Shown here in pieces: positions 13,717-64,000 of a stretch of 64,000 bases of DNA (position 1 is its first letter; the number at the start of each line of letters is the position of its first letter). The translations under genes and the position numbers were made by a program. The notes beneath the pieces are model-generated. The model saw nothing but the letters and a program-made list of their open reading frames with translations. It did not search any database and was not told the origin of the DNA. Source of the DNA: a virus; the IMG/VR virus record IMGVR_UViG_3300021964_000047, positions 9,208-73,207 of that record; one strand, 5' to 3'.

Positions 13717-14826
13717 GTGGGAAAAGTTTTAAAAATGGCAAAAGCAGGTAAATTAGATCTGAACTCAATGAAGTCTCTGATCAACAAGACCACGGGCATG
13801 AATGTAGCCCATAGTCTTGAAGAAGATAACCCAACGGCAGTAAAGGACTGGATCCCAACCGGTTCTCGTTGGTTAGACTCTATTATCTGTAAAGGCAAAA
13901 TGGCAGGTATTCCCGTCGGAAAGGTAACTGAGATTGCTGGTCTTTCAGCCTCTGGTAAATCCTTTATGGCAACTCAAATCGCTGCCAATGCTCAGAAGAA
14001 AGGTATTCAAGTTGTTTATTTTGATGCTGAGTCGGCAATTGACCCTGATTTCCTTACCAGAGCAGGCGTTGATAATAGCGAGTTGCTTTACATTCAGGCA
14101 GTTTCTGTTGAGAAAACTCTCAATCAAATCGAGACCCTAATGACCAATTATCCTGACACTCAGTTTTTGTTTATTTGGGACTCAATTGCTGCCACAGCCT
14201 CCGAGAAAGATATTGAAGGCGATTTTAATCCACAATCGTCTATGGCTGTCAAGCCTCGTATCTTCTCAAAGGCATTTCCAAAGTTAACGATTCCTCTTGC
14301 GGATTCACAATCAACTTTGGTTCTCATCAATCAGCTTAAGCAAAACATTTCCTCAAATGTTGCTGAAATGATGACGACACCTTATATTGCTCCCGGCGGT
14401 AAGGCTATTGAGTATTTCTGTTCTCTGCGTATTTGGCTCACAAAACGTAAAGCAAAGGCTTCCTTTGTTGAGAACGAAAAAGGTGTCCGAATTGGCTCCG
14501 AGACCAAAATAAAAATTGAGAAATCTCGATTTGGTTCTTATGGTCGAACATGTACCTTCAAAATCTTATGGGGAGATGATGTCGGTATTCAGGATGAGGA
14601 GTCATGGCTCGAGGCAATCAAGCTGTCAGGAACCGACAGACTTAAGCGAGCCGGTGCTTGGTATACCATTGTGGGCTCTGATGGTAAAGAATTCAAATTC
14701 CAAGCCTCTAAGTGGATTGAACAGCTTCAGGATGAAGCCTTCCGAGCTGTTGTGTATGATATCATGGACAAAGAAATCATTGAGAAATATGATAACGATG
14801 GAAGTGATATTGATATCGGTGAATAA
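13717..14826 (+). CDS. recA: RecA/UvsX recombinase
   Basis: IPTGS, Walker A GLSASGKS, YFDAE, WDSIAA, INQL, GGKA; GTG start after GGAGG. Confidence 0.92.
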   Translation: MGKVLKMAKAGKLDLNSMKSLINKTTGMNVAHSLEEDNPTAVKDWIPTGSRWLDSIICKGKMAGIPVGKVTEIAGLSASGKSFMATQIAANAQKKGIQVVYFDAESAIDPDFLTRAGVDNSELLYIQAVSVEKTLNQIETLMTNYPDTQFLFIWDSIAATASEKDIEGDFNPQSSMAVKPRIFSKAFPKLTIPLADSQSTLVLINQLKQNISSNVAEMMTTPYIAPGGKAIEYFCSLRIWLTKRKAKASFVENEKGVRIGSETKIKIEKSRFGSYGRTCTFKILWGDDVGIQDEESWLEAIKLSGTDRLKRAGAWYTIVGSDGKEFKFQASKWIEQLQDEAFRAVVYDIMDKEIIEKYDNDGSDIDIGE

Positions 14827-41333: not shown

Positions 41334-41561
41334 ATGATATATCTATTGATTGCATTGGCTCTCGCTGAGGAGCCGTCACCTGTTATCGTCTATAAACAGG
41401 AAACAGAGATCGACTTCGAAGCTGTTGACATTGAAGGGCAACTTGTCAAGCCCGAAGGGACCTTGGTCCAAGAAAGACAAGAAGCAACATTCAATCCTCT
41501 CATTAAATTGAGAATGGATTGGGATGAAGAAATTTCACAAAGCGTTAGCGAAATCAAATAA
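41334..41561 (+). CDS. CglF/GltF-like adventurous gliding motility protein homolog
   Basis: Signal peptide plus VYKQETEIDFEAVDIEGQLVKPEG..FNPLIKLR.DW..EI..SV, recalled as the myxobacterial CglF/GltF pattern. Confidence 0.65.
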   Translation: MIYLLIALALAEEPSPVIVYKQETEIDFEAVDIEGQLVKPEGTLVQERQEATFNPLIKLRMDWDEEISQSVSEIK

Positions 41562-41571
41562 TGGAGGAATA

Positions 41572-46088: not shown

Positions 46089-46275
46089 CCAAGGGAAGGT
46101 AGGTATTGTGATCAAGATTTACAAAATAGGAGCAACCTCCGAAGAATACTCTGGTGAACAAAAGATTCATTGGGAAGAATCTTATCACATTTATTATTCA
46201 GACGGCAACCACGCTTATATTAATAAATCAGCTTTTGATATTTTAGTTATAACAGGAGACATTAAAATTTTATGA
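46054..46275 (+). CDS. KOW/SH3-like miniprotein
   Basis: VKQGTLL..VGIVI. Confidence 0.45.
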   Translation: MTEVKQGTLLTDQGKVGIVIKIYKIGATSEEYSGEQKIHWEESYHIYYSDGNHAYINKSAFDILVITGDIKIL

Positions 46276-49906: not shown

Positions 49907-50113
49907 TTGTTATGCCCCCCGAATACTACGAAATGGTCTATCGTGCTATAATTTTAAGCATCGCCTTTGGTCTTGGTGTAATGTACTTGATGATATATTT
50001 CGACTTTGAAACTTGGTTTTCAAAAAAGTTTAAAAAAAAGTTTGACAAATCAGAATAAACAAGATACATTACTAACATCAGCAATTCCGCTGTTCTAAAC
50101 TATGGAGGCCACG

Positions 50114-51031
50114 ATGGCCAAACGACAATGCGATTACTGCAAAGGTGATCATACTGAAACAAAATGCCCTCACCTTGAGGGTTGGATGACGCATTTCATC
50201 AACATTATCAACCTGAACCGTACCAATCAGTATCCTAGTCTTTCTTTTGATTTGGCGACTGCTTTCGATCTATATCCGCTCGGCACATTGTGGGATAGAT
50301 TTAACTCGTCTGCGACACAATCCGATTATCTCGGCAAAACACATTGGTTATGGTGGAGCATGGTGAGATCTTACAAAAAGCGGCTAAACTATAAGAAAGC
50401 CGGAGAGAAACGCAGAGGCCAAAAGCGAACTAGATCCGTTCGTTGCGGTTACTGCGGCTCCACAGGCCACACTCGTCGTACTTGTTCCGATTACAAGAGC
50501 CATGTTGTAACTTTGAAATCTGATACTACCCTCCGTAGGGCTATGTTCGTTGATGCTTGTCGTGAGATAGGTCTAGGCAAGGGCACTTTGTTGAAATTCA
50601 CTCTCGGCAAAGAAGGGCGAGAGTACAGAGATAACGGTTGGCTCAAGGATACCGAAGATGAATTTTTGGCTATGGTTATGGAAATACCGGTAGCAAACAT
50701 CAATGCTTTCACGAATTCTAACCGTTGGTCGGACTTTTACGAGAGTGCTCATATTATTTGCAAGCCTCTTGCATCAACCAATAACAGAGGTACGGTCAGT
50801 TTATTTGCCAACAACTCTGTCTTTAACGGTGCTTTCGCTAAAATCACAGAGCAAAACCACACCCCACATTACAATAGTCTGTGGGAGGTTGAGATCGTGT
50901 CAGCCTCGAAGGATCAATCTTGGAATGAGGCCAATGCCGATGAATACTTGGACATCCTTAAGAAAAGAGAGAAGTCTATCGTTCGTTCCTATGTGGAGGC
51001 TGCAAGTCAATGGCTAGAACAAAACCGCTAG
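50114..51031 (+). CDS. double zinc-knuckle protein (paralog 1)
   Basis: CDYCKGDHTETKC and CGYCGSTGHTRRTC. Confidence 0.7.
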   Translation: MAKRQCDYCKGDHTETKCPHLEGWMTHFINIINLNRTNQYPSLSFDLATAFDLYPLGTLWDRFNSSATQSDYLGKTHWLWWSMVRSYKKRLNYKKAGEKRRGQKRTRSVRCGYCGSTGHTRRTCSDYKSHVVTLKSDTTLRRAMFVDACREIGLGKGTLLKFTLGKEGREYRDNGWLKDTEDEFLAMVMEIPVANINAFTNSNRWSDFYESAHIICKPLASTNNRGTVSLFANNSVFNGAFAKITEQNHTPHYNSLWEVEIVSASKDQSWNEANADEYLDILKKREKSIVRSYVEAASQWLEQNR

Positions 51032-51306
51032 TAATAGGCGACCTTGTGTCGTTCCAATCCACCGTTCTATCAGAACAAAATGTTTATCAAAAGAACTATT
51101 CCGATGAACGCAAGATCGGTATGGTTGTGGACACAATGGGTAAAGATATGGTCAAGGTTCAATGGGTCAGCAAGGCTGTCGAGCCTTGTTGGTATCAGCG
51201 AAAAGCCTTGAGGAAACTGGATACTCAAAAAAGTTTAAATTTTTGCTTGACATATTTCATAAAACAGGATACATTATTTACATCAACAGCAATGGAGGCC
51301 ATATGA
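51010..51306 (+). CDS. MKVGDLV-family miniprotein
   Basis: LVIGDLV..IGMVV. Confidence 0.6.
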   Translation: MARTKPLVIGDLVSFQSTVLSEQNVYQKNYSDERKIGMVVDTMGKDMVKVQWVSKAVEPCWYQRKALRKLDTQKSLNFCLTYFIKQDTLFTSTAMEAI

Positions 51307-51479
51307 AACAAGGCGATCTAGTAAAACTCAAGGGCAATGATACCCTATACATTATAAACCATTTAACAAAACTCGGCCAAACCGATGTTGCAGCAATCAC
51401 GCCAGTCGAAACAATGGACTGGTCGATGACTTGTGTATACCCCTTATCAAGACTGGAGAAATGTAATGAAAACGGGTGA
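51303..51479 (+). CDS. MKVGDLV-family miniprotein
   Basis: MKQGDLV..LEKCNENG. Confidence 0.7.
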   Translation: MKQGDLVKLKGNDTLYIINHLTKLGQTDVAAITPVETMDWSMTCVYPLSRLEKCNENG

Positions 51480-51645
51480 TTTAGTGCGATGTATTTACAA
51501 ATACGGAGGGCATGATAACTGCCGTCTGTATGGAAAGATAGGACTTGTCGTTGCCTCCTACACTATGGGGCCGTATGTCGATGTTTTGATAAACAACGAG
51601 ATACATATGATGCCTTGTCGGAGACTGGAAAAGATATGCAAGTAG
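51466..51645 (+). CDS. MKVGDLV-family miniprotein
   Basis: MKTGDLV..IGLVV..LEKICK. Confidence 0.7.
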   Translation: MKTGDLVRCIYKYGGHDNCRLYGKIGLVVASYTMGPYVDVLINNEIHMMPCRRLEKICK

Positions 51646-51857
51646 GCGATTTAGTAAGACACAACGGCTCCGGCCCTGTCGGATGGAAGATGCAAGGTGC
51701 TATTGGTCTCATAACCAAACACGAAGCGTGGACTAACGGTGGGGAGCATATCACTGCGGAATGGCGTATTTTGTGGGTTTCCAAGTGGGTGACCGACTGG
51801 TACAAAGAGGTTCTATGGTACGACACAGAATTGGAGGTGATAAGTGAAAGTCGGTGA
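51636..51857 (+). CDS. MKVGDLV-family miniprotein
   Basis: MQVGDLV..IGLI..LEVISESR. Confidence 0.7.
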   Translation: MQVGDLVRHNGSGPVGWKMQGAIGLITKHEAWTNGGEHITAEWRILWVSKWVTDWYKEVLWYDTELEVISESR

Positions 51858-52068
51858 CTTGGTAAGAACAAAGCAGCAATCTTGGATGCACGATGACTAC
51901 GACGATAGCGACTTTGGCTTTGTTGTAAACATAGGTCTAATCTACAAGATTGACGAGACAGGTGTTTGGGTTCGCCACAATGGCGGCCTCCCCTGTAACG
52001 AAGGCATACGATTATTCTATCATTTCGAGATAGACAGAGATTTGGAGGTGGTTTATGCGACGACCTAA
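51844..52068 (+). CDS. MKVGDLV-family miniprotein
   Basis: MKVGDLV..IGLI..LEVV. Confidence 0.7.
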   Translation: MKVGDLVRTKQQSWMHDDYDDSDFGFVVNIGLIYKIDETGVWVRHNGGLPCNEGIRLFYHFEIDRDLEVVYATT

Positions 52069-52225
52069 GATAGGTGACTTGGTGACTTGTAAACTTTGGC
52101 TTGAGCCAGAAATGGCTGTGGTGGTCTCGTTCCTAACGGATCATTTGGCCACAATTATGATGACCGATGGTAGTGCTCGCAATCAGTTTTTATGGGAATT
52201 GGTGGTGCTCAATGAAGGTCGGTGA
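52055..52225 (+). CDS. MKVGDLV-family miniprotein (not in ORF track)
   Basis: MRRPKIGDLV..LVVLNEGR; 56 aa. Confidence 0.65.
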   Translation: MRRPKIGDLVTCKLWLEPEMAVVVSFLTDHLATIMMTDGSARNQFLWELVVLNEGR

Positions 52226-52367
52226 TTTGGTAAGACATACAGAACTCGGTTGGCTCGGTATCGTAACGGCCAAGACACTCGTTCACAACGGACATGTTTG
52301 GTATCGTATCTATGCCAATGGTATTTCTATCGAGTATACATCGAGCAAATGGGAGGTCGTCAAATGA
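52212..52367 (+). CDS. MKVGDLV-family miniprotein
   Basis: MKVGDLV..LGIV..WEVVK. Confidence 0.7.
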   Translation: MKVGDLVRHTELGWLGIVTAKTLVHNGHVWYRIYANGISIEYTSSKWEVVK

Positions 52368-52618
52368 AAACAATAATACATGTAAATCAGCACATTATCA
52401 AAAAGAATAGGAAGGAACAGGATAATCAGCCCGTCCTTACCTGTAAGACATACAAGTCCAATAATTACGGCCATGAGGCGATTATTCGGGACAAAGAGGG
52501 CAATGAGGTAGCAAGGGTCATCTATCGTCCGGACAAACCACTATCCTGTGGGGCACATGTTTGGATAGAAACTACCCTACCGGTCGAGGTCATAAATAAA
52601 AATAAAAAAAATACTTGA
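52364..52618 (+). CDS. conserved small phage protein
   Basis: IHVNQH..VIYRPDKPLSCGAHVWIET; stop codon lies inside the TTGACA box. Confidence 0.65.
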   Translation: MKTIIHVNQHIIKKNRKEQDNQPVLTCKTYKSNNYGHEAIIRDKEGNEVARVIYRPDKPLSCGAHVWIETTLPVEVINKNKKNT

Positions 52619-52675
52619 CAAACTGCTACCCCCGTGATACATTACTAACATCAACAACGAACACAGGAGGCCACA

Positions 52676-53026
52676 ATGGCCCTTAAGGTATATGTAACTT
52701 ATATGCAAGACTGGTCTAATGGCGAGGCAGAGCCACTCTCAACCCATGTAACAGAGCAAGGTGCAAAAAAGCGACTAATTGACTATCTCACCTCTCACAT
52801 GAGAGAATTGATACGATGGTCTGATCTTTCTGATCTCGACGATTGGCTTGCCGAAACTCTTGATAGTTTCGGTGCATCGTGGAATGGATATGATCATACA
52901 GTCACAGACCTAGCGGAGGCCGATATAGATAAACTTTGGAATACTTTGTATGAATACAATGATGAAATTGCCGATACTTACGGCTCGGCTTGGTACAATT
53001 ATTCAACACACGAACTGGAGGGATGA
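52676..53026 (+). CDS. hypothetical acidic protein
   Basis: AGGAGG SD after a promoter. Confidence 0.6.
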   Translation: MALKVYVTYMQDWSNGEAEPLSTHVTEQGAKKRLIDYLTSHMRELIRWSDLSDLDDWLAETLDSFGASWNGYDHTVTDLAEADIDKLWNTLYEYNDEIADTYGSAWYNYSTHELEG

Positions 53027-53199
53027 TGAAGGTCGGTGATTTGGTGCGAGTGACCTTCTCCGATGGAGAGGTGGTCATTGGCGAATTCTATAAAAATGAG
53101 CGAGGGTTCATCGTAATACTCTCGCACGGCATAGAGGTTCCTTTCAGAGAAGGCACAGCAACGGTCGAGGTCATAAATAAAAATGAAAAAAATACTTGA
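53023..53199 (+). CDS. MKVGDLV-family miniprotein
   Basis: MKVGDLV..VEVINKNEKNT. Confidence 0.7.
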   Translation: MMKVGDLVRVTFSDGEVVIGEFYKNERGFIVILSHGIEVPFREGTATVEVINKNEKNT

Positions 53200-53254
53200 C
53201 AAATTACTACTACCGTGATACATTACTAACATCAACGAACAATACGAGGTTCAA

Positions 53255-53437
53255 ATGCAAATAGGCGATTTAGTAAAACACAAACTTAACGAAGATCTCA
53301 ACGGAAAGATTGGATTGGTAACCGCTATTCACAAAGGTATGACCTACGGTCGGCAACCATATCACATTGTCAATGTTCTATTCGGCAAGCACACATACCA
53401 AGTTAGAGCCGAACTCTTGGAGGTATTATGCAAATAA
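53255..53437 (+). CDS. MKVGDLV-family miniprotein
   Basis: MQIGDLV..IGLV..LEVLCK. Confidence 0.7.
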   Translation: MQIGDLVKHKLNEDLNGKIGLVTAIHKGMTYGRQPYHIVNVLFGKHTYQVRAELLEVLCK

Positions 53438-53589
53438 AAGTCGGAGATCTTGTGAGACACAGGTATTTCACCAAGTATGGCGTTGGCCTAGTGTTAGATG
53501 TCGGCACAATCTATGCTGGCATAAAATGGATTAAAGCCGAACACGGCTATAGATCCCAAAGGGTCGAGAACCTAGCGAGGGTCAAATGA
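53428..53589 (+). CDS. MKVGDLV-family miniprotein (not in ORF track)
   Basis: MQIKVGDLV..VGLV; 53 aa. Confidence 0.65.
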   Translation: MQIKVGDLVRHRYFTKYGVGLVLDVGTIYAGIKWIKAEHGYRSQRVENLARVK

Positions 53590-53807
53590 ATAATGATACT
53601 TGGGAGAGAGATCCCGGCCTAGACTTGATTGTAGGCGACTTGGTTGCCATTCGCAAGCACCACACTTATGGTGGAACCATCGGTGTTATCACAAAGGTTG
53701 TCGTTCCTCGCAAGCAGTTTTGGGTACACTGGCTATCTAACGAGCGGTTATCGACATTATGCACTTATCGGCTCATCGAGCCAGTCAAGGAGGACAAATG
53801 CAAATAG
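53586..53807 (+). CDS. MKVGDLV-family miniprotein
   Basis: LIVGDLV..IGVI. Confidence 0.65.
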   Translation: MNNDTWERDPGLDLIVGDLVAIRKHHTYGGTIGVITKVVVPRKQFWVHWLSNERLSTLCTYRLIEPVKEDKCK

Positions 53808-53968
53808 GCGATTTAGTACGATGTGGACACCACAAAGGCATTATTATTCGGGAAGGCATGGAGGAATTCACAGGGAGAGGCCCCGTATGGTTTCACATCC
53901 TGTGGTTCGACGGTCAACATGGATGGAAACATAAAATGCTATTGGAGAAGGTCGATGAAAACGGGTGA
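53798..53968 (+). CDS. MKVGDLV-family miniprotein
   Basis: MQIGDLV..KGII..LEKVDENG. Confidence 0.7.
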   Translation: MQIGDLVRCGHHKGIIIREGMEEFTGRGPVWFHILWFDGQHGWKHKMLLEKVDENG

Positions 53969-54137
53969 TTTAGTTAGACGAAGGAACAATGGGGATCTTG
54001 CGATTGTTATTGAGACCGAGTGGATTGAAGGAGCATATGGGCGAAATTGGCCCGAAAAGGTCAATGTGCTTACAATGCGGGGATACAAGCAATACTGGTT
54101 CCCTGTTGAGTGTGAGGTGATAAGTGAAAGTCGGTGA
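53955..54137 (+). CDS. MKVGDLV-family miniprotein
   Basis: MKTGDLV..LAIV..CEVISESR. Confidence 0.7.
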   Translation: MKTGDLVRRRNNGDLAIVIETEWIEGAYGRNWPEKVNVLTMRGYKQYWFPVECEVISESR

Positions 54138-54309
54138 TCTTGTCATGGCATCGTGGTACGAATGTGATGATGTAAAGTATGGTGTCATAACCGACATTCG
54201 TGCCGATGGGTACTTGGCTCGTATTCACTGGATGGATGGAACAATCGGCCTCCTCGATGATAGTTGGTTCAAAGTAATCAGCAATGATCGAGACAATAAA
54301 AAAACTTAA
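54124..54309 (+). CDS. MKVGDLV-family miniprotein
   Basis: MKVGDLV..YGVI. Confidence 0.7.
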   Translation: MKVGDLVMASWYECDDVKYGVITDIRADGYLARIHWMDGTIGLLDDSWFKVISNDRDNKKT

Positions 54310-54402
54310 ACTTTTTTCTTGACAAATGAAACCTAACAGGATACATTACTTATATCAGACGAACTGATACTACCCCCCTACCGCCAACCAAAGGAGATTG
54401 AC

Positions 54403-54768
54403 ATGGCGTTTTTAAAACCAAACTTACTGATTTTTATTCAAAACAATGGCAAGCCTATCACGGCTATCGTACAGAAGGTCGCTTTCCGCAGATACTGGGG
54501 AAAGGGAAAGAACGACGATGGAAAGAAGGTTCGCAAGCAACGCTCGATGCCTTATGCTATATGTAGCGTCATTATGTCACAAGACGAGCAAGTAAAGATG
54601 GGAGCACAATTCACAATTGCTGGCTATATGCTCCAAAATGTCGAGGTCAAGGGCAAAACCTCCCTCGCTTTCCGCAGCAAGTATGTAGCCGAGTTTGCCG
54701 ATAAAATGGGGAACGAATGGGTTCAGAGGATGATCAACGAGGAATTTAATCATGATACCGAGCAGTGA
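54403..54768 (+). CDS. hypothetical basic protein
   Basis: AAGGAG SD after a promoter. Confidence 0.6.
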   Translation: MAFLKPNLLIFIQNNGKPITAIVQKVAFRRYWGKGKNDDGKKVRKQRSMPYAICSVIMSQDEQVKMGAQFTIAGYMLQNVEVKGKTSLAFRSKYVAEFADKMGNEWVQRMINEEFNHDTEQ

Positions 54769-54985
54769 TTATGTCCCACAGATAGGGGATCTAGTCCAGT
54801 ACACCGGTGTCTCCAATGATTATGCCGGACAAATCGGTGTTATTACGGGCAGAACCGTGATAGCAACAGGGTATTTAAAGAACCACAAAAAACGATGGTT
54901 ATACCATATCCAGTTTCCAAGCGGCCTGTGGAACCTAAAGCCCCATCATTTCAAGGTCATTAAAAAATATGAAAAAAATACTTGA
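54752..54985 (+). CDS. MKVGDLV-family miniprotein
   Basis: PQIGDLV..IGVI..FKVI. Confidence 0.65.
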   Translation: MIPSSDYVPQIGDLVQYTGVSNDYAGQIGVITGRTVIATGYLKNHKKRWLYHIQFPSGLWNLKPHHFKVIKKYEKNT

Positions 54986-55040
54986 CAAATCATAGGTAAC
55001 AGGATACATTACTAACATCAACGACAAACACGAGGTTTTG

Positions 55041-55256
55041 ATGAAACGAATAGGAACTTTGGTAAGATTTAGGAACCATAAAAACCCTGATAGAGAGGGG
55101 ATGCTCGGCATCGTATTGACCTACAGCGAACTCGAAGGATACAGGGTTTGGTGGCAGCATGGTTCGTCTAGTGGCGGTTGGCGTGAACACAACTTCCATC
55201 AGGCCAAACTCAAGCCCAACAGAGTATGGTTGGAGGTTCTCAATGAAAGTCGGTGA
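55041..55256 (+). CDS. MKRIGT-subfamily miniprotein
   Basis: MKRIGTLV..LGIV..LEVLNESR; close paralog of 55508. Confidence 0.7.
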   Translation: MKRIGTLVRFRNHKNPDREGMLGIVLTYSELEGYRVWWQHGSSSGGWREHNFHQAKLKPNRVWLEVLNESR

Positions 55257-55440
55257 TCTTGTCCTAGAGGCAGTCGAAAAGCGAGCACGAGATGTAAGAC
55301 CCCCTCTTATGGGGGTTATCCTTGCTGTTAGCAAATCGGGCTACCATTATCATATACAATGGACAAACGGCAAAGAGGCTTATCTTGGTCGCTCAATGGT
55401 TATTCCATTAAGGAAAGATCGAGACAATAAAAATAAATAA
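55243..55440 (+). CDS. MKVGDLV-family miniprotein
   Basis: MKVGDLV..MGVI. Confidence 0.7.
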   Translation: MKVGDLVLEAVEKRARDVRPPLMGVILAVSKSGYHYHIQWTNGKEAYLGRSMVIPLRKDRDNKNK

Positions 55441-55507
55441 AAAAAATACTTGACAAACTACTACCCCCGTGATACATTACCTACATCATCGAACAACAGG
55501 AGATAAG

Positions 55508-55714
55508 ATGAAACGAATAGGAACTATAGTAAAATGGTCTGAGGACTTTCATTTCGGACAGAATAATGCCGGTATGCTCGGTATTGTTGTATCTTATACT
55601 GACGACGACGGCTACAAGATTTGGTGGGCCAATGGTTCATCAAGCGATGATTGGAGCGAGTGGGATTTTGCAAGCCCCGATGGAGCACTGGTGGTGGTAA
55701 ATGAAAGTCGGTGA
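55508..55714 (+). CDS. MKRIGT-subfamily miniprotein
   Basis: MKRIGTIV..LGIV..LVVVNESR. Confidence 0.7.
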   Translation: MKRIGTIVKWSEDFHFGQNNAGMLGIVVSYTDDDGYKIWWANGSSSDDWSEWDFASPDGALVVVNESR

Positions 55715-55880
55715 TTTAATCAAGGTCAAATACCCAAACCCTACATCAAAAGACCCTCACATCGGGGTTATTGTTGAGTTTGTGCAATGGGGCGTGGTTA
55801 AGTCCAAGTTTGCTAGGGTGTGTTTAATCAATGGTCATCGAGCCACTTATCGTCTCGATAATTTGGAGGTAGTAAAATGA
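55701..55880 (+). CDS. MKVGDLV-family miniprotein (not in ORF track)
   Basis: MKVGDLI..IGVI..LEVVK; 59 aa. Confidence 0.7.
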   Translation: MKVGDLIKVKYPNPTSKDPHIGVIVEFVQWGVVKSKFARVCLINGHRATYRLDNLEVVK

Positions 55881-56074
55881 AAGTAGGTGATTTAGTAAAG
55901 CACAACGGTCTAGACGGTTGGTACAATATGGAAGGAAAGATCGGTGTTCTCAAAGAACTACTCAAGATGCCCGACCCCCGCTGTGGTCGATGGATTGTCC
56001 ACTGGTGCGATCCGAATACACCACGATACTATCAATGGGAGGCATACTTTCCCGAACACTTGGAGGCATTATGA
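55877..56074 (+). CDS. MKVGDLV-family miniprotein
   Basis: MKVGDLV..IGVL..LEAL. Confidence 0.7.
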   Translation: MKVGDLVKHNGLDGWYNMEGKIGVLKELLKMPDPRCGRWIVHWCDPNTPRYYQWEAYFPEHLEAL

Positions 56075-56346
56075 AAATAGGCGATTTAGTAACCCTGTCC
56101 GCAACAGGTAAAAAGCAACATCAGAACGCTTTAGCAAGGTGCGCTGCCTTTGGCATCATCGTAAAGGTCGAGGATCGTGGCACATGCCGCCCTTGTTTCG
56201 ATCCCACGAGCACGGAAAACTGCGTCAGGCCCATGCTTATTGTGGATTGGTGGTATTCATCCAAAAACTGGAGGGGCAAAAAGATCCGTCAGCAGCACCA
56301 TTGGCGATACGAGATCAAAAAACTCAAGGCACAATCGAAACAATAA
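56071..56346 (+). CDS. MKVGDLV-family miniprotein
   Basis: MKIGDLV..FGII. Confidence 0.7.
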   Translation: MKIGDLVTLSATGKKQHQNALARCAAFGIIVKVEDRGTCRPCFDPTSTENCVRPMLIVDWWYSSKNWRGKKIRQQHHWRYEIKKLKAQSKQ

Positions 56347-56426
56347 ACTTTTTTCACTTTTTTTATTGACAAATGAAATATAACAAGATACATTACTAAC
56401 ATCAACCACAAACACTGGAGGCTCCA

Positions 56427-57278
56427 ATGAGAGCATTTACCAATGGCGGCTCAAGCCGTCGATCATCATCATCCTGTTCCTATTGCGGTGAAAGCGAACA
56501 CCGTATCAACGAGTGTCCTTATGCCGAGAAGGACTGGGCCTCTTTGCAAGGCGGCATTATCCCGCTCAACTCGGCCACACCTCGTGTTTGGTACAAAAAC
56601 CCAAAGTATTGGTCGGACTGGTACACCAAAGCAGAGACCGCAGTAGCAAGTATCGAGGCTGCTAGACAACGAGCCACACAAAAACGCAAAGGTTCTACTA
56701 CCCCCCGTACCTGTGGGTTCTGTGGGTCAGCAGACCATACCCGTCGCAACTGTGCCCAAATGGCTGCATTTGTAGCAAAGTGCGAGAAGGCCAATGAGAA
56801 CTGGCGACGAGAGGCTTATAAATGGCTTGTCGACAATGGCCTTTACATCGGCTCTGCTATTCAAATCCAAGAGAAATCTTGGAGGGGCGATGGTGAAAAG
56901 CACATTGCTCTGATTACATCAATAAACCTTGATGATATAAATGTTATGACTGCCTTCAATACAAGGTGGCACTCTGATACAGCCACAAACTATATCCAGC
57001 CTATCGAGATCAATGCTACCTTCAACGGTCAAACGAAAACAATCAACATCGGTGACTTGGTAAAGTCCGATAGTCCCGTGTCGGAGCGAGCGGCATCGTC
57101 ATACCATTTGTATTCCTATGTCCGCAAACTGACCTCCAATGCGACACCACCAAGCGACGATTGGATCACATCCTACAAGGCTGCGTGGACTTGGTTAGCC
57201 AAGCGAAAGTCGTACGAGTGGCTCAAAGACAACAAGATTGTCGAGCATATTGAGACTTGGGCCGCAAAGGCCCAGTAA
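56427..57278 (+). CDS. double zinc-knuckle protein (paralog 2)
   Basis: CSYCGESEHRINEC and CGFCGSADHTRRNC. Confidence 0.7.
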   Translation: MRAFTNGGSSRRSSSSCSYCGESEHRINECPYAEKDWASLQGGIIPLNSATPRVWYKNPKYWSDWYTKAETAVASIEAARQRATQKRKGSTTPRTCGFCGSADHTRRNCAQMAAFVAKCEKANENWRREAYKWLVDNGLYIGSAIQIQEKSWRGDGEKHIALITSINLDDINVMTAFNTRWHSDTATNYIQPIEINATFNGQTKTINIGDLVKSDSPVSERAASSYHLYSYVRKLTSNATPPSDDWITSYKAAWTWLAKRKSYEWLKDNKIVEHIETWAAKAQ

Positions 57279-57370
57279 TGGTCGAGGTCATAAAAAAGTT
57301 TATTTTTTTTGTTGACAAATTGCTACTACCATGATACATTACTAACATCAACGACAACCACGAGGTTCAA

Positions 57371-57730
57371 ATGAAAACAACAAACATTTCAGTCAGTCTA
57401 AACACCCCCGATGGAAGGAAACAATACACAGGTCGAGGCATTGTCGCTTATCCCTTTGTTATTCATCGCCCAATTATGAGTGTTAGGGAAATGTCAGCGG
57501 GCAATGCCTACTGGTGCGTTTCCCACATTGCCAGTGGTCGCAAGGCCTTCAATGCAGCGACAATCAAAGATGCAAAGCGGATGGTTAGTATTCTAGGACA
57601 GTTTGATCTATTCAAGATGCCCGAATGTGACAGGTTCTATGAACTTTGCAAAGCACAAGGGCGAAAGGTTCAGAACACCCTTGAGAACGAGGGTTGGTCA
57701 CCGTCAACAATGAGGTTTACAAATGTTTAA
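57371..57730 (+). CDS. hypothetical protein
   Basis: GAGG SD after a promoter; WCVSHIASG motif. Confidence 0.6.
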   Translation: MKTTNISVSLNTPDGRKQYTGRGIVAYPFVIHRPIMSVREMSAGNAYWCVSHIASGRKAFNAATIKDAKRMVSILGQFDLFKMPECDRFYELCKAQGRKVQNTLENEGWSPSTMRFTNV

Positions 57731-57920
57731 GGTTGGTGATTTAGTGAAAATCCGCATTAGAAGGGGCAAATCCGATAGGTTTCAGGGTATCATCCTGAAA
57801 ACATGGACGGCTTATCGCTATCCCTGTCGAACACCCTACATCAATGCGATGGTCTATTGTTTCGATGGAACCGAGATCGAGGTTCCCACATGGTCTATGG
57901 AGGCTCTCAGTGAAAACTAA
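57723..57920 (+). CDS. MKVGDLV-family miniprotein
   Basis: MFKVGDLV..QGII..MEAL. Confidence 0.7.
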   Translation: MFKVGDLVKIRIRRGKSDRFQGIILKTWTAYRYPCRTPYINAMVYCFDGTEIEVPTWSMEALSEN

Positions 57921-58119
57921 ATATAACATTGGCGATCTCGTCTGGGTTTTTTATCAACAGTGGCCCAAAGAGCGAGAGATGGCCGTCATCATTGGCCAAA
58001 GAATAGGAACAAACTCACAACAGTCCGAGTATCAGGTGAATTTTATCCACAATTCGGGCAGTATGGCATGGTTCCCTAAAGGTTGCATAGAGAAGATGAA
58101 GGCACAGCCGAAAGAATAA
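57910..58119 (+). CDS. MKVGDLV-family miniprotein
   Basis: KYNIGDLV..MAVII..IEKM. Confidence 0.65.
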   Translation: MKTKYNIGDLVWVFYQQWPKEREMAVIIGQRIGTNSQQSEYQVNFIHNSGSMAWFPKGCIEKMKAQPKE

Positions 58120-58198
58120 ACTTTTTTCACTTTTTTTCTTGACAAACTGCTACTACCATGATACATTATCTACATCAACGACGAATACAGGAGAACTT

Positions 58199-58375
58199 AT
58201 GAAGATCGGTGATCTAGTCCTAGACATGTACGATAACATCGGGATTGTAACGAAAGTACACGGTGGCTATTTAGTGTATGTCGATATAGTTTTAAAACCA
58301 AAGTTTAAAAACCAATCAACACAATACCGTTTTTCCGGTTGGCACGATATCGTCAACATAAGGAGGCTCATATGA
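58199..58375 (+). CDS. MKVGDLV-family miniprotein
   Basis: MKIGDLV..IGIV. Confidence 0.7.
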   Translation: MKIGDLVLDMYDNIGIVTKVHGGYLVYVDIVLKPKFKNQSTQYRFSGWHDIVNIRRLI

Positions 58376-58542
58376 AAACAGGCGATTTAGTCAAGATAAT
58401 GACCTGTGGATCAGGCAATGAAGGCAAAGTAGCCCTTGTCCTGAACCAATACTTTTCACCCGATTGTTTCAAGATACAGATAGTCGGTACAAACGAGGTT
58501 CGTCCTTATCACATCACGAGGTTAATGAAGATATGCAAGTAG
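58372..58542 (+). CDS. MKVGDLV-family miniprotein
   Basis: MKTGDLV..GKVALV..LMKICK. Confidence 0.7.
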   Translation: MKTGDLVKIMTCGSGNEGKVALVLNQYFSPDCFKIQIVGTNEVRPYHITRLMKICK

Positions 58543-58712
58543 GAGACACAGTCAGGCTCATTGCTCTAGGGGCAAGAACCCCTCGCATCGGGATTGTTCT
58601 CAAGCGTTGGGTCTCTGTTGGCCGTGAATACGCAAGAGTAGCCACAACCGATGGTATAATAAATGTCTATACTGCCCGTCGCTTGGAGGTTATATGCAAG
58701 TCGGAGACTTGA
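58533..58712 (+). CDS. MKVGDLV-family miniprotein
   Basis: MQVGDTV..IGIV..LEVICK. Confidence 0.7.
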   Translation: MQVGDTVRLIALGARTPRIGIVLKRWVSVGREYARVATTDGIINVYTARRLEVICKSET

Positions 58713-58900
58713 TCAAAGTAAAGAAAGGCTGCTTTATGCAAGGCAAGATGGGCCTTATCATAAAACTAGGCCAAGACGCCAATGGCGATCCCCGATACTG
58801 GGTACAATTGATAGGCCCCGTCCCAAAGGCCATAGAAGGAAAGCCCATCATGTTTAGGGCCGACCGGTTTACCCTTATCAGCAAAGCAACCAAGCAATGA
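58694..58900 (+). CDS. MKVGDLV-family miniprotein
   Basis: MQVGDLI.V.KG..QGKMGLI (KOW-like). Confidence 0.7.
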   Translation: MQVGDLIKVKKGCFMQGKMGLIIKLGQDANGDPRYWVQLIGPVPKAIEGKPIMFRADRFTLISKATKQ

Positions 58901-59007
58901 TCGAGGTCATAAAAAAAGTTTATTTTTTTTCTTGACAAATAGATAGTAACAGGATACATTATCTACATCAACGGCAATTACGCCACTCTCACTACGAGGT
59001 TTACACA

Positions 59008-60237
59008 ATGTCAACATTTGATCTTGACCGCTACACTTTCAAGTTGCTGCAAGGCGAACCCTTCTTTGCTGCACTATCCCGTCGTATTCAAAAGCGACCT
59101 TCTACCGCCATACCCACTGCCGGTGTCCGTCTCAACCCAGATACCGCACAGTTCGAGATGCTGTACAATCCCGCTTTCTTCGAGAACATGACCGAGAAAC
59201 AACGGCTCGGTGTCCTTAAACACGAGTTCTATCATATTATCTTCGAGCATGTCACTGGTCGTCTCCCTCCCGATGGAATGAGCCGTATGTGGAATGTCGC
59301 CACAGACTTGGCTATCAACTCTCACTTGATGGGAGAACTGCCTCAAGGCGGCTGTTTCCCTACAATCGAGCCTTTCCAAGAGTACCCTCTTGGCCTGTCT
59401 GCCGAACGCTATTTCAGCATGCTGCAAAACGATGAGCAGTTTCAGCCTCAAGATGGCGATGGAGACGGTGACGGTGAGGGTCAAGGCTCTGGCGGTGGCG
59501 ATCCTTCCGACGGCAATGGCTCCTCCTCCGGTGGTGGTGGGGGCCTACCCGATACTCTCGATGACCATGACGGCTGGGGCGAGGCCTCTGAAGAAGTCCG
59601 AGACATGGCCAAAGAGCGTCTCAAGCAAGCCGTCGAGAAGGCTGCTCAAGAGGCCGCCAGTGGTCGTGGTTGGGGCACAGTCTCAGCTGAAATGCGAAAG
59701 CGTATCATGGATATGATCAAGCCAAAGGTAAACTGGCGATCAGTCCTACGCTATTTCATCAAGACCTCTCAAAGAGCCGACAAACGCTCAACCGTCAAGC
59801 GATACAATAAAAAGTATCGAGAACAACGCTATGCCGGAAAGAAGGTCACCCGTCATGCCAAGATTGCCGTCGCTATCGACCAATCCGGCTCTGTCGGTGA
59901 CGAGATGCTCGCTGCCTTCTTTGCCGAACTCAACGGACTTGCCAAGTATGCCGAGTTCACCGTTGTTCCCTTCGATACTGCTGTCGACGATAGCAAGGTC
60001 TATGTCTGGAAGAAAGGACAGCGTGTCGGTGTCGAGCGAGTACTGACCGGTGGTACGGACTTTGACGCTCCGACCCGATGGTGCAACGACCGCCGGTTTG
60101 ACGGGCTTATCATCCTGACTGACATGGAGGCCCCCAAGCCGATCCCGTCACGGTCGCAACGAATGTGGATGACCACACCGGACTGCAAGGAACGGTCGTA
60201 CTTTCAGACAACCGAACGGGTTATTGCCATTGAATAA
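59008..60237 (+). CDS. metallopeptidase-like plus VWA domain protein (DUF2201-type)
   Basis: LKHEFYH, WNVATDLAIN, DQSGS MIDAS, GGTDF, ILTD. Confidence 0.85.
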   Translation: MSTFDLDRYTFKLLQGEPFFAALSRRIQKRPSTAIPTAGVRLNPDTAQFEMLYNPAFFENMTEKQRLGVLKHEFYHIIFEHVTGRLPPDGMSRMWNVATDLAINSHLMGELPQGGCFPTIEPFQEYPLGLSAERYFSMLQNDEQFQPQDGDGDGDGEGQGSGGGDPSDGNGSSSGGGGGLPDTLDDHDGWGEASEEVRDMAKERLKQAVEKAAQEAASGRGWGTVSAEMRKRIMDMIKPKVNWRSVLRYFIKTSQRADKRSTVKRYNKKYREQRYAGKKVTRHAKIAVAIDQSGSVGDEMLAAFFAELNGLAKYAEFTVVPFDTAVDDSKVYVWKKGQRVGVERVLTGGTDFDAPTRWCNDRRFDGLIILTDMEAPKPIPSRSQRMWMTTPDCKERSYFQTTERVIAIE

Positions 60238-60487
60238 ATGGCAACTTTCCCGTGTGGGTCGAGGCCAAAAAAAAGTTTATTTTTTTTCTTGACAAATTGC
60301 AACTACCATGATACATTACTAACATCAACGAAACAACCACAAACAACGGAGACGCTTTGAAGATACAACGACCGCCTTACTAGGCACAATCGAAACAACA
60401 AACTTTTTTTACTTTTTTTCTTGACAACTTATTCAAAACTAGTTACATTATAAACACAACAACACAATCCACTTTGGAGCAAACACT

Positions 60488-61582
60488 ATGTCTATTGATT
60501 TCAAAACCTTCCTTTCAGTCGTAACCCACATTACCGATGCTCGCTACCCTGTTCTTATCAGAGGCCGTCACGGTATCGGTAAATCCACAGTCGTCTATCA
60601 GTATGCCAAAAACAATGGCCTTCCTGTCGTGGAGCGTCGTGCCTCACAGATGACCGAAGGTGACTTGCTTGGTCTGCCCGACCTCGATGAAACCTCTATC
60701 AAAGGTCAGAAGATCACCAAGTTCTGTGCCCCCGACTGGCTTGCTCAAGCCTGTAATGAGGCTGTTGTCCTATTCCTCGATGAGGTTGACCGTGCAACAA
60801 TGGAGGTTCGTCAAGGTATCTTTGAACTTTGCGATAGCCGCAAGATTGCGGGCCATACCTTGCACCCTGACACCCTTATCTTTGCTGCCGTCAATGGCGG
60901 TCAGCACGGTGCTCAATACCAAGTGGGTGAAATGGATCCCGCAGAACTCGACCGTTACACCGTGTTCGATGTTGAGCCTACCGTTGAGGACTGGCTTGCT
61001 TGGGCCGGAGACCGTGTCGTCAAGCCTATCTTTGACTTCATCAACAGCAACCATCAGCATCTTGAGCATAGCGATGATTACGAGCCTAACAAGGTTTATC
61101 CTTCTCGTCGCTCTTGGGAGCGTCTGTCTCAAACCCTTGCCACAGCCGGTGTCAAGTACGAACAGTCCCCTGTTATCTATCACTTGGCTCAAGGTTTCGT
61201 CGGCATGGAGGCCGCTATCGCCTTCAACGATTACCTCCGAGAGTACAAAAACGAACTCACAGTCGAGCAACTTATCAACGAGGGCCGTGCTGACGATACC
61301 AACGCTTGGGTTATCAATGAGCATACTGCAATGGTCGAGAAGATCAAGCAGTCAAAGATCCTCAATGCCGAACTGGACGGCAACCAGTTGCAAAACCTTG
61401 CTAACTACTTTGTCCGTATCCCTTCAGAGGTCGGTATGCTCCTGTGGACGGTGATGGGTGAGGGTGAACAAGCCCAAAACAACATCGTCAACTTTCATGA
61501 CATCAAGGCTCAAGATGCCGATGGTAACACGATTTCTGTACAAGAGCACATTGTCTCAGTCTTGACCGCAGGTTCAAACTAG
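60488..61582 (+). CDS. MoxR-like AAA+ ATPase
   Basis: GRHGIGKS, LFLDEVDR, AAVN, DPAELDR, SRRSW; adjacent to the VWA partner. Confidence 0.88.
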   Translation: MSIDFKTFLSVVTHITDARYPVLIRGRHGIGKSTVVYQYAKNNGLPVVERRASQMTEGDLLGLPDLDETSIKGQKITKFCAPDWLAQACNEAVVLFLDEVDRATMEVRQGIFELCDSRKIAGHTLHPDTLIFAAVNGGQHGAQYQVGEMDPAELDRYTVFDVEPTVEDWLAWAGDRVVKPIFDFINSNHQHLEHSDDYEPNKVYPSRRSWERLSQTLATAGVKYEQSPVIYHLAQGFVGMEAAIAFNDYLREYKNELTVEQLINEGRADDTNAWVINEHTAMVEKIKQSKILNAELDGNQLQNLANYFVRIPSEVGMLLWTVMGEGEQAQNNIVNFHDIKAQDADGNTISVQEHIVSVLTAGSN

Positions 61583-62389: not shown

Positions 62390-62475
62390 ACAGGGCAATG
62401 TAAAAAAAGTTTGTTTTTTTATTTGACAAATCATTGGTAACGGGATACATTATCTATATCAACGGAGGAAACAAC

Positions 62476-62637
62476 ATGATTACAGTAACACTCAGTAACC
62501 TACTTGCTTATTACGGTCTAGGCCTTGTCGCTTGGATGGTCATTTGCGAGATCATCCCTTTCGCTTGGCATGTTCGGGCTTTCTGCATTGCCCTTGCCTA
62601 TTGCGGCCTTCCCTTCTTACTTTGCTCATTCGCATAA
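62476..62637 (+). CDS. small membrane protein
   Basis: GGAGG SD; hydrophobic. Confidence 0.55.
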   Translation: MITVTLSNLLAYYGLGLVAWMVICEIIPFAWHVRAFCIALAYCGLPFLLCSFA

Positions 62638-62651
62638 TCGAGGTTCTATCT

Positions 62652-62822
62652 ATGTTTATTCAACTTGGCTTTGCTGCCCTATTCACCGTGCTCTCATGGG
62701 CTATCGTATTTTACACACTGAAGATTGCCGGTGTATTCTTGGCCGTTACACTTGGTTCGTCTCCAAACGAAATAGACAAATTCGAACAAGCCTGTAATGA
62801 TCGAGACAATAAAAATAAATAA
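62652..62822 (+). CDS. small membrane protein
   Basis: GAGG SD; hydrophobic N-terminus. Confidence 0.5.
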   Translation: MFIQLGFAALFTVLSWAIVFYTLKIAGVFLAVTLGSSPNEIDKFEQACNDRDNKNK

Positions 62823-62882
62823 AAAAAATACTTGACAAATAAACCTTACCGTGATACATTATCTATATCACAGGGAGATAGC

Positions 62883-63080
62883 ATGAATGATTACGATCAC
62901 CACTACAATATGATGATTAACTTTGCAGACCGTATCTTAAAAAGCATGGTCGTTACTAACAAGCCCACACCTTTGCACGGTCAAGTCGCTGCCGATATAC
63001 TTGCAGACCGTGAAAACGCAACCCAGTTTATCTCAAACCCCCAACCTAACGGTTGGGTTATCCACACTACAATCCGCTAG
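62883..63080 (+). CDS. hypothetical protein
   Basis: GGAG SD after a promoter. Confidence 0.55.
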   Translation: MNDYDHHYNMMINFADRILKSMVVTNKPTPLHGQVAADILADRENATQFISNPQPNGWVIHTTIR

Positions 63081-63183
63081 GAGACAGCATGTTTATTGAA
63101 ATGCTAGCATTTGCCTTGCTTACAGGCTCATTTGGAACCCTCACCGCTTTGGCCGCCTTATCGGCCCTTCAATAGGAGATCAC

Positions 63184-63381
63184 ATGGTATTCGAGTTATT
63201 CACAGACCTTAAAGAGGCCCGCCAGTACTGCTACAATCACAGCATGAAAGATATCAATCGCCTTGCCCTTGTCAAGTGCGGCTACCACAAGGCCGATGTT
63301 TACTATGTCATGGACAGCAAGCAATACAAAGACCTCGTAACCAACGGGTTCAAGATGGAAACGCTCTATATGTACGAGTAA
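63184..63381 (+). CDS. hypothetical protein
   Basis: AGGAG SD. Confidence 0.55.
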   Translation: MVFELFTDLKEARQYCYNHSMKDINRLALVKCGYHKADVYYVMDSKQYKDLVTNGFKMETLYMYE

Positions 63382-63466
63382 TCATCGAGGTCATAAAAAA
63401 ACTTAAAAAAAATACTTGACAAATCCTTTAGACCGTGATACATTATATACATCACAAGGAGATACA

Positions 63467-63703
63467 ATGAAAACAGGTGATTACATCGTTTATATCGGAA
63501 CCCGCTTTGCTGAACTCAACGACGTTGACGGGGTTATCTTGGGCTTTAGCGACAAAGGCGAGGCTATTATCGAATGGCGTGTTTGGGGCGATCAAGAGGT
63601 ATCCAAGTGCATGTCCCGCATGCCCTATCCTCTAGAGGATCTTCAGCCAATGACCCTCAGCAAGCCCATGAGAGACATGGCCAAGCGACAATCGAAACAA
63701 TAA
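63467..63703 (+). CDS. MKVGDLV-family miniprotein
   Basis: MKTGDYI..DGVI..LQPM. Confidence 0.65.
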   Translation: MKTGDYIVYIGTRFAELNDVDGVILGFSDKGEAIIEWRVWGDQEVSKCMSRMPYPLEDLQPMTLSKPMRDMAKRQSKQ

Positions 63704-63781
63704 ACTTTTTTAAAGTTTTTACTTGACAAACAAAACCTAACGGGATACATTACTAATACCAAGACGATCACAGGAGATCAC

Positions 63782-63985
63782 ATGAACATTTATTCAAACA
63801 TTATCAATCGGTTCTTTCAATACAAAGGTTCAACCTACAAAGTCACAGGCCATGTGGAAATGCCCGACAATGGCCCCGCCCGTCGCACGGTCGTCAATGT
63901 CGCCACTGGATCGGAAACAAAGTTATCCTATGCTCAAATGTGGGAGGTTACACCGCTTGGATACAGTATTTCAAATAAAAGTTGA
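63782..63985 (+). CDS. hypothetical protein
   Basis: AGGAG SD after a promoter. Confidence 0.55.
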   Translation: MNIYSNIINRFFQYKGSTYKVTGHVEMPDNGPARRTVVNVATGSETKLSYAQMWEVTPLGYSISNKS

Positions 63986-64000
63986 AATAATACTTGACAA

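Follow-up and report, generated by a model that had tools for sequence, protein, structure and literature searches.

The window analyzed here, by which we mean the whole stretch of 64,000 nucleotides, is the final 64 kb of the 73,207-bp virus record IMGVR_UViG_3300021964_000047, and it contains an array of 27 paralogous miniprotein genes that are joined by a short conserved junction (Table 1). The products have an N-terminal M-K/Q-V/I-G-D-L-V, a central G-I/V-V, and a C-terminal L-E-V, and a hidden Markov model (HMM) of the family recovered all 27 members from the 73,207-bp record with E values of 5.5e-8 or below. Outside the array, the HMM gave a single weak match (E 0.006) at 45985-46272, 5 kb upstream. 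The bodies of the paralogs are just 17-39% identical to the G11 protein. Five genes that do not belong to the family break up the array, and 10 near-identical sigma70-type promoter modules within it head operons of one to seven genes. In the first family member (98 aa, 51010-51306), the final ~20 codons run through the promoter module at 51247, because there is no stop codon before the ATGA of the next gene.

Pfam and PHROG hold no family for the four miniproteins tested, with no Pfam match above the cut-off, and the ESM Atlas returned unnamed viral clusters only; the nearest named entries, DsrB and DUF4314 (score of 0.87), are leads only. An AlphaFold2 model of the G11 protein, calculated from a 34-sequence alignment, had a predicted local distance difference test score (pLDDT) of 90.5 and strands at residues 6-9, 19-28, 36-43, 46-51, and 55-59 in a five-strand barrel topology with a short turn ahead of the last strand. 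These positions make L-E-V strand 5 and put G-D-L-V at the lead-in to strand 1. When the model was compared with known structures by using Foldseek, SH3-like barrels topped the list but weakly (best E of 0.011, query TM-score of 0.56 to 0.80); the matches included the KOW domain of eS4, nitrile hydratase beta, Mfd, the KOW domain of Spt5, NdhS, and PWWP. The miniproteins are predicted from this model to be SH3-like five-strand small barrels.

Within the operons, 24 of 24 gene boundaries overlap, by 1 to 22 nt. Overlaps of 14 nt (eight boundaries), 4 nt (six), and 10 nt (four) are the recurring sizes, and 1, 8, 11, 17, 19, and 22 nt were found once each. The upstream stop codon is a TGA taken from GGT-GA in the 14-nt overlap and a TAG taken from (A/G)TA-GG in the 10-nt overlap, and the 4-nt overlap is ATGA. 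A preliminary description of this DNA had assigned TTGGAGGT a double function, as the codons of the upstream L-E-V and as the ribosome-binding site of the next gene, and had placed the upstream stop inside the conserved codons of the downstream gene, which would give the recurring protein ends ESR*, ENG*, and ICK* (asterisk, stop). Both assignments proved correct. TTGGAGGT is located 5 to 8 nt ahead of the start codon, and the tails ESR*, ENG*, and (I/L/K)CK*, the last being the form in which the CK end is found, result from the upstream frame entering the M-K-V-G-D or M-Q-V/I-G codons of the downstream gene, where a TGA or TAG ends it. A relaxed pattern (TTGGAGGY, 3 to 8 nt, a start codon, and M-K/Q-x-G-D-L codons) was indeed found at the sites that had been named, 51831, 55230, 55863, 56060, and 58683, always on the plus strand, and the variant near 53417 is visible as well. 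These five matches compare with 0.00 expected from 100 shuffles; in its strict form, the motif as first written matches only at 51831 and 55863. The N-terminal half of the motif alone gave 17 matches versus 0.02 expected, all on the plus strand, from 51303 to 58694. The junction is a 30- to 45-nt sequence in direct orientation that recurs every 150 to 280 nt. Exact runs of at least 12 nt were found in 21 of 351 junction pairs versus 0 of 351 gene-body pairs, and the G4/G5 junction has a 24-nt exact run in common with the G15/G16 junction (~54113).

Boundaries between operons (n = 9) are gaps of 55 to 107 nt that contain the promoter modules. All 11 plus-strand modules in 50000-59200 have an exact TTGACA, 17 nt, and TACATT with an A/T tract upstream; the full layout is a TCGA box (in several), the A/T tract, TTGACA, 17 nt, TACATT, a conserved leader, the ribosome-binding site, and the start codon. 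The stop of the upstream gene falls in the A/T tract, and the ribosome-binding site and start of the next gene are at the 3' end of the module. As had been described, the genes ending at 52618, 53199, and 54985 stop inside TTGACA, on the TGA of the -35 hexamer. GTCGAGGTCA had been reported to encode V-E-V-I in genes that end a unit, which holds at 52618 and 53199 and only there; the same box follows a stop codon at 57287-57296 and, as ATCGAGGTCA, at 58903-58912. The box, (G/A)TCGAGGTCA, codes for V-E-V-I...NKN.KNT* as the tail of an unrelated gene (52586-52618) and of a miniprotein gene (53167-53199) and is noncoding past the stops at 57278 and 58900. A GAGGT core, said to be common to both junction types, is present in some of the 11 modules and not in the rest. 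The modules are without a conserved stem-loop: no terminator-like site was found in any of them, the fold z-scores of eight modules ranged from -2.37 to +0.74 (six of the eight between -0.72 and +0.74), and 51000-59100 has no inverted repeats of at least 14 nt within 60 nt.

Relatives of the locus were taken from IMG/VR (80 loci that carry the VWA anchor gene, plus 1 with a gene distantly related to the zinc-knuckle gene) and from a metagenome scan with the zinc-knuckle gene. In 70 of the 81 IMG/VR loci, 1 to 22 family copies lie near the same anchor gene, always on the strand of the anchor; the closest relative in this set, L001 (anchor 92% identical), begins just ahead of the anchor and lacks the array. 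The metagenome scan gave 28 loci, 8 of which (L090 to L096 and L114) match the window at 88 to 97% over the main blocks. According to the gene maps of the relatives, the non-family genes and the modules are a fixed scaffold and the miniprotein cassettes vary. The eight contigs differ from the window by 14 distinct gene-content events (insertions, deletions, replacements, and relocations) with 28 ends, of which 18 are in junction zones (-20 to +25 around a miniprotein start), 7 are in promoter zones, and 3 are elsewhere. Junction zones make up 15.2% of 51000-59100 (binomial p = 5e-9) and promoter zones 13.2%. For 12 of the 14 events, each of the two ends fell within a junction zone or promoter module.

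Cassettes that are lost, replaced, or relocated are listed in Table 1. The cassette that replaces G23 in L094 encodes an unrelated 66-aa paralog, L091 has a direct G22-to-G24 joint (breaks at 55898/56060, as in L096), and the G24 body of L090, L091, and L095 is a 50-53% identical allele. Extra cassettes were found before G5 (two, L093), before G11 (one, L091 and L093), before G29 (one, L091), and after G16 (one, L095), and L091 has three additions before G23, namely a copy of G24, a module, and a new cassette. All eight extra miniprotein cassettes in the relatives are intact open reading frames (ORFs) with overlaps of 4, 10, or 14 nt. The additional genes at the modules at 57312 and 58932, in L090 and L093, each came with a module, and 40 to 92 nt of duplicated module sequence flank the insertions. 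Module-encoded tails such as ...DRDNK.. close non-family genes in L090, L092, and L114; such gene tails suggest that module exchange crosses over within the 3' end of the upstream gene. In the module at 56366, the -35/-10 spacer (56357-56387) is replaced in L090, L091, and L095, with 43 to 44% mismatch there and 0 to 6% in the flanks.

Several of these changes were also seen in contigs from Logan (four runs from four studies, compared over 51000-59100 at a likeness of 88). Among the joints listed, the loss of G23 (55870>56068) occurs in 4 of 4 runs, the loss of G6 in two, and the deletion of G24 (56079>56303) in two; further junction-to-junction joints are 53045>55877, 55869>51635, 51288>51466, and 58194>58533, and module-to-module joints are present as well. 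Both ends lie in a zone in 15 of the 24 unique joints among those listed, and of their 48 ends, junction zones contain 18, promoter zones 19, and other sequence 11. In relatives at 67 to 78% identity, cassettes are also reordered and duplicated: G22-G23 moved to the operon after G28 in L097, L098, L101, and L108, the order G4-G3 is swapped in L098, and G15, G22, and G24 are doubled. In six comparisons covering four more distant locus pairs, 8/30, 9/29, 7/21, 11/24, 5/12, and 4/5 of the block ends near the arrays were in junction zones, with a null expectation of 9 to 12%.

Table 1. Positions of the junctions, promoter modules, cassettes, and other genes discussed in the text (numbering of the window)
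Feature	Position	Strand	Remarks
Array of 27 paralogous miniprotein genes, 51-98 aa	51010..58900	+	ORFs, translations, family HMM
Junction G4/G5	51831..51860	+	TTGGAGGT, GTG start, upstream TGA in G-D codons, 14-nt overlap
Junction G19/G20	55230..55259	+	14-nt overlap, tail ...NESR*
Junction G22/G23	55863..55893	+	ATGA, 4-nt overlap; left crossover site of G23 loss
Junction G23/G24	56060..56087	+	Right crossover site of G23 loss/replacement; left site of G24 deletion
Junction G31/G32	58683..58710	+	19-nt overlap, tail ...ICKSET*
Cassette G6	52055..52225	+	Absent in L093; joint 52038>52196 in runs X7 and X10
Cassette G23	55877..56074	+	Absent (L096, 4 runs), replaced (L094), or relocated to another operon (L091, L092, L097, L098, L101, L108)
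Cassette G24	56071..56346	+	Deleted (L092, X7, X10); body replaced in L090, L091, L095
Cassette G27	57723..57920	+	Absent in L090, L114
Cassette G29	58199..58375	+	Absent in L114, breaks 58218/58371
-35 hexamers of 10 promoter modules	51247, 52615, 53196, 54319, 54982, 55450, 56366, 57312, 58139, 58932	+	
Promoter module (-35 at 52615)	52565..52675	+	
Promoter module (-35 at 57312)	57262..57370	+	L090: 97-aa gene and second module inserted
Promoter module (-35 at 58932)	58882..59007	+	174-aa gene in L090, 205-aa gene in L093: different insertions, module duplicated each time
Hypervariable patches	51725-51758, 53494-53551, 54011-54061, 54805-54913, 57472-57497, 57586-57615, 57939-58086, 58744-58887		Flanks 4-13% divergent in the same contigs
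Non-family gene	52364-52618	+	Matches phrog_8676
Non-family gene	52676-53026	+	
Non-family gene	54403-54768	+	
Non-family scaffold gene G25z	56427..57278	+	Two CCHC zinc knuckles; position constant in all relatives; anchor for fetching them
Non-family gene	57371-57730	+	
DUF2201 metallopeptidase/VWA gene	From 59008		Downstream of the array; MoxR-like ATPase is its partner
RecA/UvsX-family recombinase gene	13735..14823	+	PF00154, 139 bits, E 4.6e-42; also in 3 of 4 related records
Other phage genes (functional annotation)	19961-21313, 21330-23300, 32361-36092, 41524-43143, 59008-61579		DnaB-like helicase, ribonucleotide reductase, DnaE-type polymerase, GroEL-like chaperonin, DUF2201/VWA + MoxR-like ATPase

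Several crossovers are located inside the motif itself. L090 and L114 have a G27-type N terminus fused to a G28 body, and the crossover is therefore within the V-G-D codons; in L093, a G5 body carries a G6-type tail, with the switch in the C-terminal/ribosome-binding motif TGG(A/T)GGTG. The deletion of G24 in L092, X7, and X10 is out of frame: it runs from the GGCGAT of its own G-D codons to a chance GGCGAT at 56303, 220 nt downstream, and it is not gene preserving. G23 was lost at two different crossover points, inside the G-D-L-V codons in L096 and at TTGGAGG in the contigs of 4 of 4 runs. The cassette before G11 has a 22-nt exact repeat on both sides, and the longest exact runs in the direct repeats that flank variable cassettes were, in the best cases, 22, 22, 17, 13, and 10 nt. 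The chimeric starts and tails, the out-of-frame G24 deletion, the two-point G23 loss, and the 22-nt repeat point to a real bias toward homology.

We therefore favor, with moderate confidence, ordinary recombination that is guided by homology or microhomology and uses the sole sequence common to unrelated cassettes, and we infer a causal role of that homology. Three ordinary constraints coincide in the junction: the upstream L-E-V codons, which double as the ribosome-binding site, the start codon 5 to 8 nt on, and the downstream K-V-G-D-L-V codons, which hold the upstream stop, hence overlaps of 4, 10, or 14 nt. Since the junction is the only sequence that otherwise unrelated cassettes have in common and is directly repeated, crossovers would tend to fall there. 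Exchange could be catalyzed by a RecA/UvsX-type enzyme of the phage, for which the RecA/UvsX-family protein encoded in the window is by its sequence a candidate, or could depend on template switching or end joining at microhomologies; neither route would involve a dedicated recombinase or a dedicated site. A search for RecT-type annealing proteins was negative in all 5 records, with no search made for other single-strand-annealing families. Recombinants would survive because frame, ribosome-binding site, and coupling are kept, and the outcome would be whole cassettes gained, lost, replaced, duplicated, and relocated. The ~120-nt promoter modules would have the same role for operons and non-family genes. 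The overlapping genes are probably translated by termination-reinitiation, and the stretch is a hyperplastic region with probable early expression.

Recombination might, on the other hand, be indifferent to homology, with illegitimate breaks anywhere, survival of the products that keep their genes, and a junction conserved for folding and translation alone. We regard such a filter by selection as possible but doubtful. Several results speak for it and against a causal role of the junction. Because the genes abut, or indeed overlap, and share the motif, any viable whole-gene change is forced to end in a junction zone; the enrichment of event ends therefore shows that change is cassette-wise and not what causes it, and selection against broken genes predicts the same pattern. 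In 8 of 13 flanking-repeat comparisons, the longest exact run was only 3, 4, 4, 4, 6, 6, 6, or 8 nt, and runs of 3 to 8 nt are below the length usually thought to be needed for RecA-type exchange. Change-points of divergence in collinear sequence (n = 35) were not enriched at junctions, with 4 in junction zones, 7 in promoter zones, and 24 elsewhere (p = 0.80 and 0.41). Divergence blocks of gene size with junctions at their ends had been expected, but most change-points bound short hypervariable patches in gene bodies. The claim that cassettes are inserted, deleted, and reordered at the junctions is thus supported for gene content (12 of 14 events with both ends in a junction zone or module) and not for collinear change-points (4 of 35 in junction zones). 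Homology-guided recombination would use homology wherever it is present, that is, anywhere between orthologous cassettes and only at a junction or module between different ones. Two clean allelic switches do coincide with a joint: L091 switches at 53953 (G15 start), and L090 has a 9%-divergent allele of G29 with switches at 58173 (module) and 58372 (G30 start) and 0 to 0.7% mismatch in the flanks. What speaks against a filter by selection is that the out-of-frame deletion of G24 uses the motif word GGCGAT though no gene is preserved, that the loss of G23 is recurrent at two different junction points, that one cassette has 22 nt of exact flanking repeat, and that the chimeric termini locate crossovers within the motif.

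The hypervariable patches themselves, with mismatches of 22 to 83%, are inside the gene bodies of G4, G12, G15, G18, G26x, G28, and G32 and resemble hypervariable loops or small allelic replacements; the G15 patch has deletions of 9, 6, and 1 nt in one Logan run.

The conservation of the junction DNA, too, is nearly all covered by protein, ribosome-binding-site, and overlapping-stop constraints, as a filter by selection would have it. Conservation of synonymous sites beyond these needs had been proposed as a mark of a shuffling site, and only a slight excess was found: the observed mean pairwise identity of the 18-nt x-x-G-D-L-V block was 0.661, versus 0.636 ± 0.007 predicted when synonymous codons were resampled from gene-body usage (P = 0.0005). 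This small excess, which also counts against the junction as a cause, is explained by the overlapping stops and by A/T-ending 5' codons. ATA or GTA before GG deviates because the upstream TAG is formed there, and GTC-GGT-GA is chosen because it forms the upstream TGA; the other deviating codons, TTA, GTA, and AAA, end in A/T, and A/T-ending codons are commonly favored near starts. Indeed, in a hand tally, GGT was used in 7 of 7 miniprotein genes for which the preceding gene ends on that TGA and in 5 of the 20 remaining genes (25%) versus 31% in gene bodies, and so the preference was gone. Among 59 nonredundant loci (12 near-duplicate loci were dropped), the synonymous identity of 430 motif blocks, 345 of them GDLV, was 0.512 within a locus versus 0.445 between loci; no inference of within-genome homogenization was drawn, since genome-specific codon usage could explain the difference.

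A further-reaching idea is that the junction is partly maintained because it makes the array shuffleable, as a joint that is embedded in coding sequence and free of a recombinase. We consider this unlikely. If it were true, coinfecting phages of the clade would swap SH3-like binder cassettes in frame, change their order, and enlarge the combinatorial library that they form; circular or tandem intermediates might serve, and stops in both alternative frames would make any cassette fit any neighbor.

That chimeric joins of co-occurring strains at short repeats mimic shuffling is very unlikely, although the material calls for some caution, which adds to the points against homology-guided exchange given above. 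All relatives, and indeed every sequence used, are assemblies (the relatives from metagenomes), the Logan contigs are short, Logan joints at <95% likeness may stem from other organisms, the Logan joints listed are 15 of 66 and 12 of 17 table rows, and promoter-to-promoter joints are the type of join that repeats could cause. However, exact runs of at least 31 nt were found in 0 of 55 module pairs and 0 of 351 junction pairs of the window, and chimeric assembly at its own repeats is therefore unlikely. Moreover, the events recur in independent assemblies and samples: the loss of G23 in L096, L091, and all four runs, the loss of G6 in L093, X7, and X10, the extra cassette before G11 in both L091 and L093, and the loss of G27 in L090 and L114, where the flanking substitutions differ. 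The products are invariably intact ORFs. Least probable of all, and rejected here, is a dedicated, integron-like system in which the junction would be the site of a specialized recombinase and cassettes would move as excised circles: cassettes are indeed gained, lost, replaced, and relocated as units, and joints that go back (such as 55869>51635 and 57354>56326, among those listed) would fit circles or tandem duplications, but a search for a tyrosine recombinase (PF00589) in 5 records, including two with a completeness rating of 100%, gave none, the array has no hairpin site, crossover points vary inside the junction, with one at a chance GGCGAT word, and synonymous motif positions are free to vary.

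The phage itself has only distant relatives among isolates. CheckV rates the record as 40% complete, which implies a genome of ~180 kb, and related records rated complete have 184 to 193 kb. No near-identical DNA to the window was found in GenBank phages. In protein searches, the closest isolates for the VWA/metallopeptidase protein were Pseudomonas jumbo phages with ~25% identity, the zinc-knuckle protein had no match among isolate phages, and the best isolates for the DnaE-type polymerase (1244 aa) were at ~30% identity. Near-identical pieces are present in four sequencing runs labeled salt marsh, seawater, marine, and estuary, the only runs among those listed that were used here. The products of 50102-51031 and 56427-57278 are paralogs with two CxxC...H....C motifs each; the latter scored slightly below the Pfam cut-off for CCHC zinc knuckles (20.1 versus 20.8 bits) and has an internal I-G-D-L-V ~75 residues from its end. 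Beyond the conserved VWA/ATPase block, at 62400-64000, L090, L092, and L114 are rearranged relative to the window and have many more promoter modules.

Tandem multigene families evolve by unequal crossing-over, and the array resembles them in its head-to-tail paralogs and in the turnover of copy number and content. Since the paralog bodies have diverged as far as described above, exchange homology is confined to the ends of the genes, unlike in such families. With integrons, the array has in common promoterless cassettes in one orientation behind a promoter and a content that varies among relatives; it differs in that no integrase or attC-like hairpin was found and in that its joint is formed by directly repeated coding sequence. 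The preliminary description had also named promoter early stem-loop (PeSL) elements as an analogue. As presented in the relevant passages of the papers on T4-type phages, these are ~100-nt repeated motifs with a sigma70-type promoter, an A/T tract with the upstream stop, and a 3' ribosome-binding site and start; they lie among small unknown genes and flank indels or replacements between close relatives, and homologous recombination between the motifs has been proposed (Arbiol et al. 2010, PMC2839356; Comeau et al. 2014, PMC4122927). The analogy holds for the promoter modules, which are likewise repeated sigma70-type motifs with an A/T tract and stop in a small-gene region and flank indels, and does not extend to the in-operon junction or to a stem-loop. 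The modules have no stable stem-loop, the terminator/attenuator element that defines PeSLs in those passages, the polymerase of the phage is of the DnaE type and no isolate is close to it, and most events occur at a second, smaller, coding joint within operons for which the same passages give no PeSL counterpart.

Short conserved sequences at gene boundaries have been proposed in lambdoid phages to serve homologous exchange of unrelated modules (Susskind and Botstein 1978; Clark et al. 2001, as cited in PMC3029335), and the part of the latter paper on mosaicism states that, for the majority of mosaic joints, no such sequences can be identified (PMC3029335). The in-operon junction is an explicit case of this model: here, too, a short conserved boundary is common to otherwise unrelated genes, and it differs in being explicit, repeated 27 times, and coding, since the ends of two proteins are read from it, along with a ribosome-binding site and a stop. 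Gene-content events coincide with it or a module in 12 of 14 cases and collinear change-points with junction zones in 4 of 35. The same part describes, in mycobacteriophage Island3, an extra small gene (gene 68) whose C-terminal codons (~50 bp) are shared with the upstream gene, which was read as recombination at short gene-end repeats (PMC3029335). As described there, Island3 gene 68 is a single case; the joint in the present phage is family-wide. Our literature searches returned PeSL and general mosaicism papers only, and none of these gave a coding junction shared by a paralog array as the point of exchange.

It has long been debated whether the joints of phage mosaics arise from short conserved boundary sequences or from random illegitimate recombination followed by selection. 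In the array described here, the differences between natural relatives are whole cassettes with breaks at an explicit boundary, and a few crossovers have been caught inside it; the array is thus a natural system in which the two models of mosaicism can be separated experimentally. The miniprotein family is widespread in this phage group, and its members are probably host-directed binders. The array illustrates how a large library of tiny, probably early proteins with rapid turnover can be maintained by a phage, always in frame and expressed.

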